From sequence record OZ035804.1: a stretch of DNA of 45,588 nt. One strand, given 5' to 3'. Origin of the DNA: Vectrevirus PDP21P3. Within the stretch, counting starts at the first letter, position 1. The number at the start of each line of letters is the position of its first letter. Made by a program: the position numbers and the translations under genes. The notes under the pieces are model-generated. The model worked only from the letters and a program-made list of their open reading frames with translations. It was not told the DNA's origin and did not search any database. Shown one piece after another: positions 5,996-24,842 of the stretch.

Positions 5996-7792
5996 ATGCT
6001 TCAAAGATTAAGCACTGCCTTGGTGCGGTATAAAAGTAAAATGTCAGGTGCAATAGGTCGTATATTGCAAGAAAGACTAGAAGATACGTTAAATGCAAAA
6101 GACTTTGGTGCAAAATGTAATGGAGTGGATGATGATACAACCCCTCTCAACAATGCAGCAACAGCAGCACGCCTTAAAGGAGTCAAACTCGTAATAACAG
6201 GGTCTTGCCTAACAACTGACACAGTTAACTTTAGAGAGGTACTGCTAGAGGCATCAAGTGCTACGTTTATTATTAAACACGAGGGTGTTGGTGTTATCTT
6301 GGGTGGTAATGCAAGTGTGCACAATAACCCCAAGCAAGAGTTTGGTATGACAGAGAGACTTGTTGGGTCTGCATCTCTAGACGCTCCTGATGTACGTATA
6401 ATTGGTGCCAAGTGCCAACACATTAGCATAGAGAAGTCTGATTACCTTCAGCTATATGCAGATTCAGATGAATCAGTATATGAAAAGGACTACTCTATCG
6501 CGTATTCCACTTTTACCTTAAAGTATGTTAAAACAATCAACATACGCGGGATTAATCGTGGTTGGATTAATGAGAACCAGTTCTTCTTAAATAGAACACA
6601 TTTTGTGACAATACAAGATGGCAATTACTCTCATAACCACAATAAATTCTTTGGTGGCACTATGGAAGAGAAAGGTGCTATAGATATACAGAGAGGTCAT
6701 AATAATCACTTCTTTGGGCTTCGATTCGAAAGAGATGGCTCTAAGCCAGATAGGACACTAGACATCAAGTTTGGTTCTTATACATGGAATAATTCAATTG
6801 AAGCATCGTGGCTCAGCTCTGCTGCATATAGCAACGAACCCTATAACCCAAATAATCTTGTCACTGTTACAGATTTAGGTAGAGGTAATGCTGTACGCCA
6901 TATACAAGAAGATTTAACAGATGAGATCCCTTTGCTTTCACTAAGTGGAAAGGCAGACTACATCTCTAGTACCAACCTAGGTACTGTAAGCCAACCTGTT
7001 GTTATAACTAACTTCCCTAATATATATAATATTAGACACCTAGTATCAAGCAAGTTTTCTGTTGTAAGAAATTTCTACCCTATATGGGAGTCTGGTAATT
7101 TAGAGGTAAGGAATGGAGACTTATTCACATTCTGCTCTGATGTACCTATCTTCCGTATGCGTCTATTTATATTAGATGCGCAAGGTAATGTAATCACTGA
7201 GCAATTAGATGATGATGTATCATTCCCTGGTAGTTCTTGGAATGCACAATTAAGTATGTATACAAATACTACCAATATTGATGTTGCTAAAATACGTGTC
7301 ACTAATAGTTCTCGTATTAAATACATTCGTCTTGTCTTGATGTCTGGTGGTTCATCTCAAGATAGAATCTTTGAATATGCAAGAGTGACTGCAAGATACT
7401 ATAAGTATTCAAGCTCAACACCTCGTAAGAATATGGATGTTGCCTTAACCTCTTGCTCTGCTATGATGCCTTATAAGGGCGATGCAGAGATGCAATATAT
7501 GGGTTACGGTCTGCCTGTTGTTAAGATGGAAGATACGACTAAGAAGGTTAATATAACACGTAATAGGTATTCTGTTATTAATGTGTCTGGTTCTTCTATT
7601 AAGGTAAGGGTTTCAGGTAGTCTTATATCCGCAGATTCTAACGACTTACATCTTGTATATACAGAGGGTTCCGCTAATAAAATTATACCTATTCAGTCTT
7701 TATCGGATGATACTATTACTTTAACTTCTACTGCACCTACTACTATAGTAGCCAATAGCATGGTGGATGTAGTTTGTACAAAGCCGATGTGA
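5996..7792 (+). CDS. tailspike 2 (second receptor-binding/depolymerase-like protein)
   Basis: 598 aa, ATG 4 nt after AAAGGAGG; N-terminal DFGAKCNGVDDDT pectate-lyase-like motif; noticeably AT-rich; no phage promoter of its own. Confidence 0.7.
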   Translation: MLQRLSTALVRYKSKMSGAIGRILQERLEDTLNAKDFGAKCNGVDDDTTPLNNAATAARLKGVKLVITGSCLTTDTVNFREVLLEASSATFIIKHEGVGVILGGNASVHNNPKQEFGMTERLVGSASLDAPDVRIIGAKCQHISIEKSDYLQLYADSDESVYEKDYSIAYSTFTLKYVKTINIRGINRGWINENQFFLNRTHFVTIQDGNYSHNHNKFFGGTMEEKGAIDIQRGHNNHFFGLRFERDGSKPDRTLDIKFGSYTWNNSIEASWLSSAAYSNEPYNPNNLVTVTDLGRGNAVRHIQEDLTDEIPLLSLSGKADYISSTNLGTVSQPVVITNFPNIYNIRHLVSSKFSVVRNFYPIWESGNLEVRNGDLFTFCSDVPIFRMRLFILDAQGNVITEQLDDDVSFPGSSWNAQLSMYTNTTNIDVAKIRVTNSSRIKYIRLVLMSGGSSQDRIFEYARVTARYYKYSSSTPRKNMDVALTSCSAMMPYKGDAEMQYMGYGLPVVKMEDTTKKVNITRNRYSVINVSGSSIKVRVSGSLISADSNDLHLVYTEGSANKIIPIQSLSDDTITLTSTAPTTIVANSMVDVVCTKPM

Positions 7793-14855: not shown

Positions 14856-16843
14856 TGGCGATAATCAATAACATCCAATGCCCCGCTTGCGCTAAGAACG
14901 GGCATGATAAGTCCTCTAATCATCTTATGATATTTGATGATGGTGCTGGCTACTGTAACCGTGGTCATTTCCATGATAACGGCAAACCTTACTACCATAA
15001 GCCGGAAGGTGGCATCGAGATAACCGAGTTGCCAATTACTGGCAATATCAAATATACACCTTCTCAATTCAAAGAAATGGAGAAGGAAGGGAAGTTAAGC
15101 GACCCTAAGCTACGCGCCATCGCACTTGGTGGTATGCGTATGAAAGACCGTTGGGAGGTCATGAATGAGCAAGAAAGGGCAGACCAAGAAGCAGAGTGGA
15201 AACTTGATGTTGAATGGTTCCTCACGCTTAAGCGTAAGAACCTTGTTTCCCGACACATTCGCGGCGACATTTGCGCATTGTATGATGTACGTGTCGGACA
15301 CGATGAAGAGGGTAGAGTCTCACGGCATTACTATCCACGCTTCGAAGGTGGAGAGTTAGTAGGTGCTAAGTGTCGTACCTTACCTAAAGATTTTAAGTTT
15401 GGTCACTTAGGTAAGCTCTTTGGTATCCAAGATCTTTTCGGTATGAATACTTTGTCTCACGTGTTAGACAAGGGAAGACGAAAGGATTGCTTACTTATTG
15501 TAGGCGGTGAACTTGATGCACTAGCAGCCCAGCAAATGCTCCTTGATTCTGCCAAAGGTACTAAGTGGGAGGGGCAACCTTATCATGTATGGTCTGTTAA
15601 CAAAGGTGAGTCTTGCCTTGAAGAGATAGTACAGAACCGAGAGCATATCGCCCAATTCAAGAAGATTATTTGGGGCTTTGATGGGGATGAGGTAGGACAG
15701 AAGCAGAACCAACAAGCGGCTCGCCTGTTTCCCGGCAAATCCTACATCCTTGAATACCCTTCTGGTTGCAAAGATGCCAACAAGGCATTGATGGCTGGTA
15801 AAGCCAAAGAATTTGTGGATGCTTGGTTTAATGCAAAGTCATCTGATGAAGTCTTTGGTAGCCAGATTAAATCTATCGCATCTCAAAGAGATAAGCTCAA
15901 GGCTGCACGTCCAGAACAAGGGCTGTCATGGCCTTGGCCTAAGCTAAACAAGGTAACGCTGGGTATCCGTAAGAATCAGCTTATCATTGTAGGTGCAGGC
16001 TCTGGTGTGGGTAAGACTGAGTTTCTCCGTGAAGTAGTTAAGCATCTCATTGAAGAACACGGTGAATCTGTAGGCATCATTTCTACAGAAGACCCGATGG
16101 TCAAAGTGTCCCGTGCTTTTATCGGCAAATGGATTGATAAGCGTATTGAGTTACCACCAACCAACGACCCGAAAGAAGATGGATACCGTGAGGTGTTCGA
16201 CTATACCGAGGAAGAAGCTAACGCCGCCATTGATTATGTAGCCGATACAGGGAAGCTGTTTGTAGCTGACCTAGAAGGTGACTACTCGATGGAGAAGGTA
16301 GAGCAGACCTGCCTTGAGTTTGAGGCTATGGGTATTTCCAATATCATCATTGATAACTTAACGGGGATTAAATTAGATGAGCGTGCTTTTGGTGGGAAGG
16401 TTGGTGCACTTGATGAATGCGTCAAGCGGATTGGTACTATCAAAGACCGACACCCAGTTACTATATTCCTTGTATCACACCTTACACGTCCTCCGGCAAA
16501 CCGTACCCAACACGAAGAAGGTGGCGAGGTTATCCTTTCTGACTTCCGAGGCTCAGGAGCTATCGGATTCTGGGCATCTTACGCCTTGGGGATTGAGCGT
16601 AACACAAGAGCTGAAACGCTTGATGAAAGAACTACCACGTACATTTCATGTGTCAAAGACCGCGACCAAGGAATATTTTCCGGTACTCGTATAATGCTTA
16701 AAGGCGATATTGCTACGGGTCGCTTACGTGAACCAGAGCAAAGATCTCGACCGTTTGATACTGGTGCTCCAAAAGAACAAACTGTACCAGAAGAAGTGGT
16801 TGATAAAGGAGGTTTTATTGCTGACGAAGTTGAAGAGTTTTGA
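14855..16843 (+). CDS. DNA primase/helicase (T7 gp4-like)
   Basis: N-terminal Cys4 zinc ribbon CPACAKNGH…YCNRGH; Walker A GAGSGVGKTEF; Walker B-like IIIDNL; acidic C-terminus ending EEF. Confidence 0.9.
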   Translation: MAIINNIQCPACAKNGHDKSSNHLMIFDDGAGYCNRGHFHDNGKPYYHKPEGGIEITELPITGNIKYTPSQFKEMEKEGKLSDPKLRAIALGGMRMKDRWEVMNEQERADQEAEWKLDVEWFLTLKRKNLVSRHIRGDICALYDVRVGHDEEGRVSRHYYPRFEGGELVGAKCRTLPKDFKFGHLGKLFGIQDLFGMNTLSHVLDKGRRKDCLLIVGGELDALAAQQMLLDSAKGTKWEGQPYHVWSVNKGESCLEEIVQNREHIAQFKKIIWGFDGDEVGQKQNQQAARLFPGKSYILEYPSGCKDANKALMAGKAKEFVDAWFNAKSSDEVFGSQIKSIASQRDKLKAARPEQGLSWPWPKLNKVTLGIRKNQLIIVGAGSGVGKTEFLREVVKHLIEEHGESVGIISTEDPMVKVSRAFIGKWIDKRIELPPTNDPKEDGYREVFDYTEEEANAAIDYVADTGKLFVADLEGDYSMEKVEQTCLEFEAMGISNIIIDNLTGIKLDERAFGGKVGALDECVKRIGTIKDRHPVTIFLVSHLTRPPANRTQHEEGGEVILSDFRGSGAIGFWASYALGIERNTRAETLDERTTTYISCVKDRDQGIFSGTRIMLKGDIATGRLREPEQRSRPFDTGAPKEQTVPEEVVDKGGFIADEVEEF

Positions 16844-17306
16844 GGCCGCAGGTTATACCATCAAGGAAGATGGTACTATCCTTAACCCTAAAGGTGTAAT
16901 ACGCAAGCCCACGTCTTTAGGAAAGAAAGTAAAGTATTTATATGTAACTTGGAAACATCAAGGTCGAACAGTAACAGAACTTGTACACCGACTGGTTGCT
17001 TGTAAGTACATACCCAACCCACATGGTTTACCAGAAGTTCATCATAAAGACTTTAATCCTCTTAATTGTCATAAAGATAATCTTGAATGGACAGATGGGA
17101 AAACCAATTGTGAGTACAGCTATTCACGAGTAGAGACTGCACTTGCACGAAAGGCTACTTTGCTGTCACCTGATGGAATTAAACATGATGTGTTTAATGT
17201 TCGTAAGTTCTGCCGTGAACATAGCCTCAATCCACCTAGCATATTTGAAGTGCTTAGTGGTAAGCGTAAATCACACAAAGGATGGACTATTTACCGGACA
17301 CTATAG
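16818..17306 (+). CDS. HNH homing endonuclease
   Basis: HRLVACKYIPNPHGLPEVHHKDFNPLNCHKDNLEW = HNH motif; probable TTG start 5 nt after AAGGAGG (track ORF 16710 extends upstream into helicase in another frame); stop lies inside the 17289 promoter. Confidence 0.65.
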   Translation: MLTKLKSFEAAGYTIKEDGTILNPKGVIRKPTSLGKKVKYLYVTWKHQGRTVTELVHRLVACKYIPNPHGLPEVHHKDFNPLNCHKDNLEWTDGKTNCEYSYSRVETALARKATLLSPDGIKHDVFNVRKFCREHSLNPPSIFEVLSGKRKSHKGWTIYRTL

Positions 17307-18764: not shown

Positions 18765-18885
18765 TTTCATCATATTGATTGGAGGTGCATTATGCCACGT
18801 GATTATGATTCTGATTGGGACTACTTTGACTCAATGAATCCAAAACCCGAACGTTCAGATGATTACTACGAAACAGAGGCAATGT

Positions 18886-21396
18886 ATGAAAACTATTGAT
18901 TGGAAGAAGGAAGCAGAAGGGCGAATCCTAGTGATGGATGCGGAAGCTAAAGGTCTGCTTGATGCTATCCGCTATGGTCATCGTGAAGATGTACACATCA
19001 TTTGCTGCATGGATTTGCTTACTACAGAGGAGTTCTTATTCTTTGACCCATATGAGATGCGTGACCCTGAAGCAAGAGAACACCTGAAGGAATGGGAAGG
19101 ACATCAAGATGGAACCTTGGTTGACGGTGTTAACTTCCTGAAGCATTGTGAAGCTATTGTGTCACAGAACTTCCTAGGGTATGACGGCCTTCTCTTTGAG
19201 AAAGCATTCCCTGATATTTGGAAAGGCTTTAACTATACCGAGAAGCGCGGCAAGGGCAGACTCCGTGCTGACCTGTGTCCTATCCGTGTTGTCGACACAC
19301 TGGTAATGAGTCGCCTGTTAAACCCCGACAGACGTCTTCCTCCGCAAGCTTATGCCAAGGGCATGGGTAACGTTGCCCCTCATTCAATTGAGGCGCACGG
19401 CATCCGTATAGGCCGCTATAAGCCGGAGAATGAGGACTGGTCTAAGCTAACTGACCACATGGTTCATCGTGTACGTGAGGACGTGGCGATTGGTCGTGAC
19501 CTGTTCCTGTGGTTGTACAATGGGGAATGGATGGAGCACAAACGCCGTGGCGTGAACAAACGCACTGGCCTAGGTATTGAGACAGCCTTCCACATGGAAT
19601 CCATTGTGGCGCTGGAGATGAGCCGTCAGGCCGAACGCGGATTCCGTCTGGATATCGACAAGGCCTTAGCTCGATGCGAAGAACTGGACGCCAAGATTGA
19701 TGAGACAGTCGCAGCGTTCCGTCCGCATATGCCTATGCGTATCAAGTCTAAACCTTTTAAACCGGAAGAGAAGAATGAAACCTGCCAAAAAGCAAATGAG
19801 TATGGACGAAGCAACAACATCAACGTGGTTCTCGACCCCTCACACTTTCTACATGCAGAACGCCGTGGAGATAGGAAAACTGTTTGGGCTGTCACCACTA
19901 AGTCTGGTGACTGGAGTGCTTCTGTCAAGAAAGATTTCCCTCACCTTAGAGGAAACCGTAATGATACGCCAAGCATCAAGTGGATTGGCGCTTATAGTCC
20001 AGTCACGTTTGAAGAGATTCCCTTGGGAAACCGTGACACCGTTAAGCAAGTGCTCTACGACTATGGCTGGAAAGGTGTGGAGTTCAACGACACCGAGCAA
20101 GCCTATCTTGATGAAAATGGTGTCCTACCTAAGCCTTGGAGTGGTAAGATAAATGAAAAGTCCCTTACTTTATGGCAGGAAAGAGCCGCACGTGAAGGTA
20201 AAACAGTCCCTGATTGGTGCTTGGGTATCGCTGCATGGTACATACTCGTATCCCGTCGTGGTCAGATCCTCAACCGTGGTGACGTTGAAGCCTTCAACGA
20301 GAAAGGAACGTGGCCCTCGCAGGCTGGTGTACGAAAGTGTCGTGGCCTTGTACCTGTAGCCTTTAACAAGGAGCTAGGAATCAATGCGCAGCAATACTAC
20401 GAAAGGTATGGATGTTGGCCTACGTCTGACAAAGATGATGGAGAGTGGCGTGTGCCAGGCAATGCTGTTACTATTGGTACTAATACGTTTCGTATGCGTC
20501 ATCGTAACATTGTTAATATTCCTTCCCGTGGGTTGTATCCTCTACGTGATTTATTCATAGCTAGCAAAGGTAAAATGATACTCGGATGTGATGGCGCGGG
20601 TCTTGAGCTTCGCATCTTAGCCCATTTCATGGGTGATCCTGAGTATATTGATATTGTCTTGAATGGCGATATTCACTCACACAACCAAGCGAAGGCTGGA
20701 TTGCCCTTACGTGACACTGCGAAAACATTTATCTACGCTTTTCTCTACGGGTCTGGCATACCAAACCTTGCCGCTGTATGTGGCATGACTGAAGCACAGA
20801 TGAAAGAGTGTGTCGCTCGCTTTGAAGTAGAGCTACCTCACTTAGCTAAGCTTAAGGAGGGAGTGGAATCTGCTGCTTCACAATTTGGGTACATGCACGC
20901 TGTAGATGGGCGCTGGGGTCGTGTACGTGTTAGTAATGGTGAGATTAAGATTCACACCTGTCTTAATGTACTCCTCCAGATGACCGGTTCTCTCACTATG
21001 AAGTACTCAAAAGTGAAAGCACTAGCTACCATGCGTAAAGAGGGCGTGGCTCTTGATGCTAATGGTAATCCTGCTATGCTTGTCGACTATCACGATGAGT
21101 GGCAGATGGAGGTGCCTGAAGACGAAGTGTTAGAAATTCGCTACTCTATTCCTTCCTCTGAATGGAAAGAAGAAGAGAAAAGGCAGTATCGAGACTCAGA
21201 AGGACGTATGTGGTCTGCACCTAAGATTGTGGAAGGCAACCCTAAAGAGGATGAGGAGATCACTGTACGTCGTCGTTATCATCGTGCTGGTGAGATCCTA
21301 GCTGAATCTATTACATGGGCTGGAGAATATCTCAAGTTACGCATTCGAATGGATGGGGAATATATGCTTGGGTATTCATGGGCTGAAACACACTGA
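18886..21396 (+). CDS. DNA polymerase (family A, T7 gp5-like)
   Basis: ATG after GAGG (track start 18859 is upstream of first ATG); motifs DGAGLELR and RDTAKTFIYAFLYGSG match T7 DNAP motifs A/B as remembered. Confidence 0.9.
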   Translation: MKTIDWKKEAEGRILVMDAEAKGLLDAIRYGHREDVHIICCMDLLTTEEFLFFDPYEMRDPEAREHLKEWEGHQDGTLVDGVNFLKHCEAIVSQNFLGYDGLLFEKAFPDIWKGFNYTEKRGKGRLRADLCPIRVVDTLVMSRLLNPDRRLPPQAYAKGMGNVAPHSIEAHGIRIGRYKPENEDWSKLTDHMVHRVREDVAIGRDLFLWLYNGEWMEHKRRGVNKRTGLGIETAFHMESIVALEMSRQAERGFRLDIDKALARCEELDAKIDETVAAFRPHMPMRIKSKPFKPEEKNETCQKANEYGRSNNINVVLDPSHFLHAERRGDRKTVWAVTTKSGDWSASVKKDFPHLRGNRNDTPSIKWIGAYSPVTFEEIPLGNRDTVKQVLYDYGWKGVEFNDTEQAYLDENGVLPKPWSGKINEKSLTLWQERAAREGKTVPDWCLGIAAWYILVSRRGQILNRGDVEAFNEKGTWPSQAGVRKCRGLVPVAFNKELGINAQQYYERYGCWPTSDKDDGEWRVPGNAVTIGTNTFRMRHRNIVNIPSRGLYPLRDLFIASKGKMILGCDGAGLELRILAHFMGDPEYIDIVLNGDIHSHNQAKAGLPLRDTAKTFIYAFLYGSGIPNLAAVCGMTEAQMKECVARFEVELPHLAKLKEGVESAASQFGYMHAVDGRWGRVRVSNGEIKIHTCLNVLLQMTGSLTMKYSKVKALATMRKEGVALDANGNPAMLVDYHDEWQMEVPEDEVLEIRYSIPSSEWKEEEKRQYRDSEGRMWSAPKIVEGNPKEDEEITVRRRYHRAGEILAESITWAGEYLKLRIRMDGEYMLGYSWAETH

Positions 21397-21455
21397 GTTA
21401 TACTCAAGGTCACTTATGAGTGGCCTTTATGAATAACTTAACTGGAGGAAATATA

Positions 21456-22013
21456 ATGAATGAACTGAACACTAAGATGCTCAAGAAAGTTTATAATCTT
21501 GTATATAGTATCACGGGTCTACAATTCTACCCTGTAGGCGGTGCGGTTCGTGACACCCTGTACGGAGTAACACCTAAAGACTATGATATGGTGTTGCCTG
21601 TAGGGTCTATGGCAGATTTTCAGGCGCACGAAATCATGGAAAATATCTCTGAAGAGATGGCAATTATGGGATTTAGTACCAAACTCTACCAATCATACGG
21701 TATCAATTTAGGTTATGAAATCAACCCTACCTCTTTTCAGGCTATGTTCCTTAGCTGCATGAAAGTGCAGATGCGTAATTGCCAACTTGATTTGCTTCTT
21801 TCTAAGTCTGAAACCATCCAAGATCATGTACGTAAGCACGATTGCAATATGAATATGGTGTGGTTCGATGGTAAAGATATCAAGTGGGAGCACGGCGGTG
21901 TTACTCCTTTCGTTCCTGTGTTAGAGTTCAACCCTGACGTATGTGATCGTCGCATTGCTTACATGGACAAGAAGCGCCATGAACTTATCCGTCACAAATT
22001 AATGCATCTTTGA
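21456..22013 (+). CDS. minimal nucleotidyltransferase, CCA-adding enzyme/poly(A) polymerase head-domain-like
   Basis: FYPVGGAVRDTLYGVTPKDYDMV matches the GGxVRD…D-x-D signature of the tRNA nucleotidyltransferase/poly(A) polymerase family; only ~185 aa; ATG 7 nt after GGAGG. Confidence 0.6.
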   Translation: MNELNTKMLKKVYNLVYSITGLQFYPVGGAVRDTLYGVTPKDYDMVLPVGSMADFQAHEIMENISEEMAIMGFSTKLYQSYGINLGYEINPTSFQAMFLSCMKVQMRNCQLDLLLSKSETIQDHVRKHDCNMNMVWFDGKDIKWEHGGVTPFVPVLEFNPDVCDRRIAYMDKKRHELIRHKLMHL

Positions 22014-22035
22014 TTTACCGGACACTATAGAAGGA
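22013..22035 (+). promoter_or_regulatory. phage RNAP promoter
   Basis: ATTTACCGGACACTATAGAAGGA; +1 G at 22030. Confidence 0.7.
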
Positions 22036-24183: not shown

Positions 24184-24471
24184 ATGCCGACTATTGAATC
24201 TCGTTTGTACTTGGAGACATTACACTATTATAGCCAGCTACACATGTCTGGTATAATGCGTGTTAAGGTTCTTCTAGATGGTGAAGTGTTTCACATAGAA
24301 GAAATCAATGTGGCGATGCAGCCTTACAGAAGACCTGTTGATGTACTCCTTGATATCCTGAAGGAGTGGACATGCAACTCGAAGAATACTTGCGAACAAC
24401 CCTTGCTGTTGACGAAGAAAGTCCTAGTGGCCTCGTGTGGAAAGTTAGGGCAGCGAGAAGAGTTCGTGTAG
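24184..24471 (+). CDS. hypothetical protein
   Basis: 95 aa ORF; its last ~100 nt overlap the HNH-AP2 gene in another frame. Confidence 0.35.
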   Translation: MPTIESRLYLETLHYYSQLHMSGIMRVKVLLDGEVFHIEEINVAMQPYRRPVDVLLDILKEWTCNSKNTCEQPLLLTKKVLVASCGKLGQREEFV

Positions 24472-24842
24472 GTCAGCCAGCACTTGCTTGCTTAAAACCA
24501 GATGGCTACTACCAAAGTACCGTCATGGGTAAGAAGCTGTACGCTCACCGCGTAGTGTTCTTCTTGACGCATGGGTACTGGCCTGTCAATGTGGATCACC
24601 TCGATGGTAATCGTCAGAACAACAAGCCGTATAACCTAGCAGATGTGGATGCAGCAGAGAATGCAGAGAATCGTATGCACTTCGGTTGCTATCTGACTAA
24701 GCAAGGTTGGCGTGTTCGTATCCAAGTTAAAGGTATTAGGAGAGATATTGGCACTTACCCTACCAAGGAAGAGGCCATATCTGCCTATACCAAGGCAAAG
24801 CTAGAACTTCACCACTCTCCACGTTATAAGGAGGTGGTATGA
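24372..24842 (+). CDS. HNH endonuclease with AP2-like DNA-binding domain
   Basis: HRVVFFLTHGYWPVNVDHLDGNRQNN (HNH motif) plus GWRVRIQVKGIRRDIGTYPTKEEAISAY (AP2-type); ATG 5 nt after AAGGAG. Confidence 0.7.
   Translation: MQLEEYLRTTLAVDEESPSGLVWKVRAARRVRVGQPALACLKPDGYYQSTVMGKKLYAHRVVFFLTHGYWPVNVDHLDGNRQNNKPYNLADVDAAENAENRMHFGCYLTKQGWRVRIQVKGIRRDIGTYPTKEEAISAYTKAKLELHHSPRYKEVV

Follow-up and report, generated by a model that had tools for sequence, protein, structure and literature searches.

Vectrevirus PDP21P3 carries, at positions 21456..22013 (+ strand), a gene for a minimal class II-type nucleotidyltransferase (NTase). [quoted passage not shown] The window, meaning the whole stretch of DNA analysed, is 45,588 bp long, matches OZ035769.1 at 100% identity and is the complete genome of an SP6/K1-5-like phage of the Molineuxvirinae, within the Autographiviridae.

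The coding sequence, stop codon included, runs from an ATG at 21456 to a TGA at 22011-22013 and specifies 185 amino acids. A Shine-Dalgarno sequence, GGAGGA (21444..21449, + strand), can be read 6 nt upstream of this ATG. There are two alternative in-frame starts (GTG at 21420 and ATG at 21429), but the start at 21456 is favoured because the homologues begin at the equivalent methionine. Comparison with the NTase gene of the Klebsiella phage KpnP_VR702 gave a dS of 0.21 and a dN of 0.027, corresponding to a dN/dS of 0.13. With this ratio and the Shine-Dalgarno sequence, the product of about 185 residues put forward by an earlier, sequence-only reading is that of a genuine protein-coding gene under purifying selection.

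The relationship to class II enzymes emerges from profile searches, alignments and a structural model. Only one Pfam family, PolyA_pol (PF01743), was reported for the NTase, at 22.7 bits against a gathering score of 23.0 and covering motif A alone; the relatives P0013, with 25.2 bits, and P0016, with 26.1 bits (profile positions 3-116 of 126), exceed the threshold. For the close homologues P0002 and P0003 (74-77% identity), a precomputed annotation lists PF26128.2, a family missing from the local Pfam scan of both. The NTase matches PHROG 1614, 'nucleotidyltransferase', over residues 19-174 (E 4.1e-40). When solved structures were searched with the single sequence, the matches were marginal (E 0.02); a profile built from 74 diverse homologues, reaching down to ~20% identity, retrieved class II CCA-adding enzymes at 5e-9. 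The same profile aligned with residues 2-150 of E. coli Cca at 95% probability (hhalign), the C-terminal helix of the NTase being placed on Cca residues 135-150. Profile hits to nucleotidyltransferase families, on which the sequence-only reading had staked its assignment, are thus present, and its description of a protein without body and tail domains agrees with both the length of 185 residues and the extent of the Cca alignment. The AlphaFold2 model (mean pLDDT 88.5) has the head-domain fold of the class II superfamily and comprises the head, an extra helix (residues 54-70), a low-confidence loop (residues 81-93) and a basic C-terminal helix. The latter (residues 164-184; 21945..22010, + strand) appears to be a remnant of the first neck helix; R166 is conserved in 96% of the homologues, M170 and K173 are also conserved, and residues 160-185 have a pI of 9.6.

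Conservation across the 74 homologues is highest at the predicted active site. Motif A, G28-G29-A-V-R32-D33...K41-D42-Y-D44 (21537..21587, + strand), contains two catalytic carboxylates and aligns with the GGAVRD...D.D of solved CCA-adding enzymes, in keeping with the GGAVRD...DYD head-domain signature noticed earlier. G28, G29, D42 and D44 are invariant (74/74), and R32 and D33 are found in 95% and 97% of the homologues. D112 (21789..21791, + strand), which lies in a beta-strand of the model formed by residues 110-116 and is kept in 70/74 (95%), is presumably the third catalytic carboxylate, by analogy with a head domain that carries three carboxylates (PMC3925840). The three carboxylates are therefore conserved at 95-100%, as the sequence-only reading had also demanded for its assignment, and R32, D33, Y81, D112, D129, N133, and R166 at 93-97%. 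This conservation, along with the dN/dS of 0.13, suggests that the NTase is probably catalytically active.

The residues that would confer specificity follow a different pattern. In class II enzymes, the neck provides a base-reading Asp and Arg, whereas the body and tail grip tRNA by its acceptor and T-arms (PMC3925840). When CCA repair was selected for in vivo, neither the Asp nor the Arg of the EDxxR motif could be substituted (PMC11784652). In the PDP21P3 NTase, EDxxR or [ED]D..R is absent in any register, and only R166 is kept on the equivalent helix. Motif B is degenerate: the stretch H128-D129-C-N131-M-N133 (21837..21854, + strand) is the counterpart of RRD-x-T-x-N and aligns with the RRDFTINA of solved CCA-adding enzymes and E. 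coli Cca. PDP21P3 reads K-H-D-C-N-M-N against a family consensus of x-F-D-C-N-x-N, such that the Asp and the Asn are retained; D129 and N133 are each kept in 95% of the 74 homologues, and F or H occupies position 128 in 93% of them. Within the short family, only 6 of 74 members have an RRD tripeptide at any position and 2 of 74 have EDxxR, compared with 66/67 for each motif in a control set of 67 full-length viral homologues (CCA-like ORFs >300 aa from IMG/VR viral contigs). Genes of this full-length type made up the majority of the IMG/VR loci retrieved. With RRD and EDxxR lost and the body and tail missing, a canonical measuring or templating of CCA would not be available to the protein, and the earlier suggestion that it re-adds 3' CCA to tRNA is, in its canonical form, unlikely.

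Model-based comparisons lead in the same direction. The NCBIfam CCA equivalog models scored 17-26 bits against cut-offs of 451-624, and these sub-threshold matches were confined to motif A. A bona fide CCA-adding enzyme was rejected on the grounds that EDxxR, RRD-x-T-x-N, and the full neck, body and tail are all missing. PcnB, poly(A) polymerase I, was also rejected, since TIGR01942 and NF008634 gave 26.1 bits against 305.65 and 17.4 bits against 702, respectively, and EDxxR is not found. Compared with class II tRNA nucleotidyltransferases and poly(A) polymerase I (1MIV, 3H37, 4WBY, 3WFO, 3AQL), which are ~350-470 aa long, the 185-residue NTase has its neck reduced to one helix, and its extra helix and long low-confidence loop lie between catalytic strands. 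A stand-alone CCA head-domain protein has been solved (NP_344798.1, PDB 2LA3, 191 aa), but it is a much weaker structural match to the NTase than are the full-length class II enzymes.

The short family is large. At 50% identity and E <= 1e-3, an exhaustive profile search yielded 211 representatives; 150 of these were listed, and the majority of them are 160-230 aa long. The short architecture, a head plus one basic helix in about 170-200 aa, is thus the rule of the family. Some members, among them P0107 (397 aa), P0095 (259 aa) and P0140 (278 aa), are extended at the N or C terminus by 70-200 aa without any Pfam match, and these additions could be substrate-targeting domains. By tblastn, 181 of 50,697 phage records contain the NTase; in a sample of 60 spread over the ranking, genomes measure ~39-53 kb and the taxonomy lines that were read name Autographiviridae. 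The hosts of the tblastn hits include Pectobacterium (57), Klebsiella (50), Vibrio (24), Proteus (15) and Aeromonas (11), among others. A structure search of viral proteins added relatives of the same size from Pseudomonas phage LKD16, Pantoea phage LIMEzero, Ralstonia phage phiAp1, Acinetobacter phage fBenAci002 and Caulobacter phages. No copy matched in 5,426 complete E. coli genomes or in 72,556 plasmids. The 185,579 species-representative genomes yielded no close relative: a profile scan of them returned only housekeeping CCA/PAP genes (23-31% identity) or bare motif A, and the short family had no chromosomal copy among them. The short family was found only in virulent T7-type phages. CCA-enzyme-like modules were also seen in a quite different setting, within giant proteins. 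Many IMG/VR contigs contain ORFs >1300 aa with such a domain, and ORFs of ~1350-1720 aa occur at the viral loci L070, L073, L075, L076, L088, L090, L108, and L118. Further cases are P0090 (1347 aa) and P0083 (1455 aa), the latter consisting of four complete tandem CCA-adding-enzyme-like repeats, each with GGCVRD...DID. We know of no described function for such tandem tRNA-nucleotidyltransferase arrays.

A second feature of the family is its position. The NTase gene lies beside the DNA polymerase gene, or one gene from it, in every genome examined. It is directly downstream of the polymerase in Molineuxvirinae and in Drulisvirus SU503, where stop and start codons overlap, directly upstream and overlapping in Pektosvirus PP81, and one gene away in Maculvirus; at close IMG/VR loci, the polymerase is upstream in 7/7 and directly so in 6. 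In PP81 (L005), another tRNA-related function, at 6242-6511, is clustered at the polymerase. PDP21P3 follows the common arrangement: as the sequence-only reading had remarked, the NTase adjoins the DNA polymerase gene (845 aa; 18859..21396, + strand), which ends 60 nt before the NTase start. That reading had also placed the gene outside the canonical T7 set, and it is indeed absent from T7 and SP6 themselves.

Relatives of the NTase have already been annotated as 'nucleotidyltransferase' or 'tRNA nucleotidyltransferase' in many records. A putative CCA-nucleotidyltransferase was described as an accessory gene that recurs among Autographiviridae, present in 37/46 Pectobacterium Autographiviridae compared with 60 of >500 others, with evidence for its horizontal transfer and with its role left open (Evseev et al. 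2020; PMC7693777). Far from being an oddity, the gene is therefore widespread, annotated and previously discussed, and its presence here is unsurprising. PHROG 1614, which includes KpnP_VR702 gp17, Pm5460 gp17, PP81 gp28, SU503 gp20 and the LKD16 protein, is the same family, with the same length, the same place beside the DNA polymerase and no essential difference; the PDP21P3 NTase adds one more member, from an E. coli phage of Vectrevirus, most genomes of which do not have the gene. No experimental characterization of any short-family member was found in the literature. The systematic lack of CCA-enzyme specificity motifs, deduced from the alignments, is the new point of the present analysis, together with the range limited to virulent T7-type phages, the proximity to the polymerase and the swappable cassette described below.

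The transcriptional context can be read from SP6-type promoters. The core GACACTATAGAAG has 13 + strand matches in the PDP21P3 genome compared with 1.4 expected by chance; eight are exact (129, 2234, 3909, 17297, 18184, 22021, 23630, and 32960) and five are near matches. These 13 matches provide a transcription map of the genome. One core lies at 22021..22033 (+ strand), 8 nt past the NTase stop, and is conserved in SP6 and KpnP_VR702. The nearest promoters upstream of the polymerase are at 17297 and 18184, and the genome-wide match placed no core between polymerase and NTase; the NTase is therefore the last gene of the polymerase transcription unit. A hairpin with leader (21394..21440, + strand) lies between the polymerase stop and the NTase start (RNA fold -17.5 kcal/mol, z -2.76) and may serve in RNA processing or as a pause site. 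It is conserved in SP6, where it stands upstream of an unrelated small gene, gp16. Alignment shows that the leader and the promoter at 22021 form the left and right boundaries of a slot that holds gp16 in SP6 and the NTase in PDP21P3. Copies of at least 90% identity were present in 8 of 181 phage records, whereas the flanking DNA is common to 86 records, which indicates that most Vectrevirus genomes, and SP6, are without the gene. The NTase proteins of PDP21P3, from E. coli, and KpnP_VR702, from Klebsiella, are 94% identical, and the cassette and its short flanks share ~90% DNA identity; such identity between phages of the two hosts points to horizontal exchange. From these comparisons, the NTase is a swappable accessory cassette.

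Other genes of the region were also surveyed. ORFs at 16710-17306 and 24366-24842, in the replication region, have strong PHROG matches to HNH endonucleases (Pfam HNH_3) and are probably homing endonucleases. Downstream of the NTase, the ORF at 22100-22477 matches PHROG 7450, 'polysaccharide chain length determinant protein' (E 4e-70), an annotation that looks doubtful as the sole Pfam match is weak and coiled-coil-like. The neighbouring genes scanned encode HNH endonucleases or belong to families without a known function; none is an end-healing phosphoesterase or ligase partner, and there are no tRNA genes in the PDP21P3 genome.

What the NTase does can be proposed from its residues, its model and its context. 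The reading we prefer, to which we would give an even chance, is that of an active template-independent nucleotidyltransferase that adds one or a few nucleotides onto an RNA 3' end with a non-canonical choice of nucleotide. D42, D44, and D112 would bind two metal ions, and the nucleoside triphosphate would be held between the head and the C-terminal helix with its conserved R166. A nucleotide would then be joined, template-free, to the terminal 3'-OH of a nucleic acid. The likeliest acceptor is an RNA whose helical stem ends in a short 3' overhang, as at the acceptor end of tRNA. One or few nucleotides would be added, with a specificity different from, or relaxed relative to, that for CCA. In the Aquifex CC-adding enzyme, Phe83 and Phe85 form a stacking platform for the acceptor helix (PMC3925840), and the conserved Y78 and Y81 may, by analogy, take over this stacking role. 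The NTase would be made together with DNA polymerase from the middle transcription unit and, being dispensable and horizontally exchanged, would presumably be useful on some hosts only, for example in RNA 3'-end maintenance or repair. Against such RNA 3'-end addition stand the missing RNA-binding body and tail domains and the marginal Pfam head score. Given the loss of RRD and EDxxR, the acceptor may alternatively be DNA, a protein or a small molecule, and the steady adjacency to the polymerase could be a pointer to a DNA-related role.

Several other functions have to be weighed against this proposal. A counter-defence role is conceivable; the NTase would then be a genuine CCA- or A-adding repair enzyme that restores tRNA 3' ends lost or blocked through host immune nucleases, such as Cas12a3 or HEPN RNases, or through exonucleases. 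The closest characterized relatives are tRNA nucleotidyltransferases, cleavage of tRNA tails is a proven immune strategy (PMC12851939), Y78 and Y81 could mimic the Aquifex platform, and the enrichment by host genus across unrelated subfamilies (PMC7693777), along with cassette exchange, suggests host-specific selection. However, the irreplaceable EDxxR residues and RRD are absent, nothing remains of the domains that grip tRNA, the CCA equivalog scores are far below their cut-offs, and the neighbourhood offers no end-healing partner. In many tRNAs the discriminator base, too, is lost to Cas12a3 (PMC12851939), a damage beyond CCA addition alone. Moreover, the E. coli host already has a full Cca enzyme, which both weakens the case for repair and means that simple redundancy does not explain why the NTase is kept; on balance, genuine CCA repair appears unlikely. 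Also rather unlikely, by a shade more, is a repurposed class II NTase, neither tRNA repair enzyme nor poly(A) polymerase, with a new donor or acceptor and tied to the T7-type replication and transcription machinery; it might be a terminal transferase that uses dNTPs or modifies primer ends together with the adjacent DNA polymerase, or a dedicated answer to tRNA-tail immunity. A replication-linked enzyme, working with DNA polymerase or primase-helicase, for example to extend DNA or primer 3' ends or to make or maintain RNA primer ends, would fit a polymerase that is directly adjacent in three subfamilies, whether up- or downstream and sometimes overlapping, one gene off in Maculvirus, and upstream at all seven close metagenomic loci. 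The RRD motif contributes to discrimination of the ribose 2'-OH, and its loss would fit the use of dNTPs. According to PMC11506809, which summarizes Zhu et al. 2012, T7 replication can use host tRNA as a substitute primer. Yet T7-type gene order is colinear and compact, which makes adjacency and overlap weak evidence, the slot is a general accessory site that in SP6 holds an unrelated small gene, and most T7-type phages replicate without the NTase. We also know of no class II nucleotidyltransferase that acts on DNA, and a replication-linked function is quite unlikely.

The remaining explanations are less probable still. Poly(A) or oligo-tailing of host or phage transcripts, for decay or stabilization and thereby for host shut-off or nucleotide recycling, would suit an unspecific RNA 3'-end enzyme without tRNA-binding domains and with a basic C-terminal helix, but poly(A) polymerase depends on EDxxR for ATP selection (PMC2532741), the pcnB models are missed by a wide distance, and indiscriminate tails would destabilize the phage mRNAs too; we regard tailing as improbable. 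Small phage NTases of the MNT-like type (BCP1, Av05) make competitor cyclic dinucleotides that blunt TIR-STING, a proposed counter-defence (bioRxiv 10.1101/2022.06.09.495361), and they share with the NTase the polymerase-beta superfamily, whose fold is also common to CD-NTases and OAS. A nucleotide signal or competitor ligand that disturbs cyclic-nucleotide immunity is nevertheless very improbable here, as the MNT-like enzymes form a different clade with a GS-x-AY[GAN]T-x4-SDxD site, in contrast to GGAVRD-x8-DYD (GGxVRD...DxD) in the NTase, and a PADLOC scan gave no match. The MNT-like cyclic-dinucleotide class was rejected because the NTase reads VGGAVRDTLYGVTPKDYD and has neither this site nor NP-x-h2[DE]; the NTase also lacks the cGAS/DncV-like fold and profile of CBASS-type CD-NTase cyclases, and the DUF1814-type toxin and adjacent antitoxin of MenT/AbiEii systems. 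A MenT/AbiEii-like toxin, or a catalytically dead decoy blocking host tRNAs or host Cca, is barely credible: the PADLOC result applies here as well, the neighbours in the window are DNA polymerase and a promoter and no conserved partner gene exists, the motifs are class II rather than DUF1814, and the catalytic residues are conserved, which argues against a dead decoy. The earlier idea of a minimal-nucleotidyltransferase toxin/antitoxin module fails on the same PADLOC and partner-gene results and on the absence of GS...SDxD.

With 181 of 50,697 records and 211 representatives, the NTase family is among the most widespread function-unassigned accessory enzymes of T7-type phages. Cas12a3 cleaves tRNA 3' CCA tails as a form of immunity, and viral counter-measures were stated to be unknown by the authors (PMC12851939), which makes the repair of RNA 3' ends a topical question. 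Knowledge of the substrate of the NTase would reveal how much of the class II scaffold template-independent polymerization needs, and whether infecting phages repair or edit the 3' ends of RNA.
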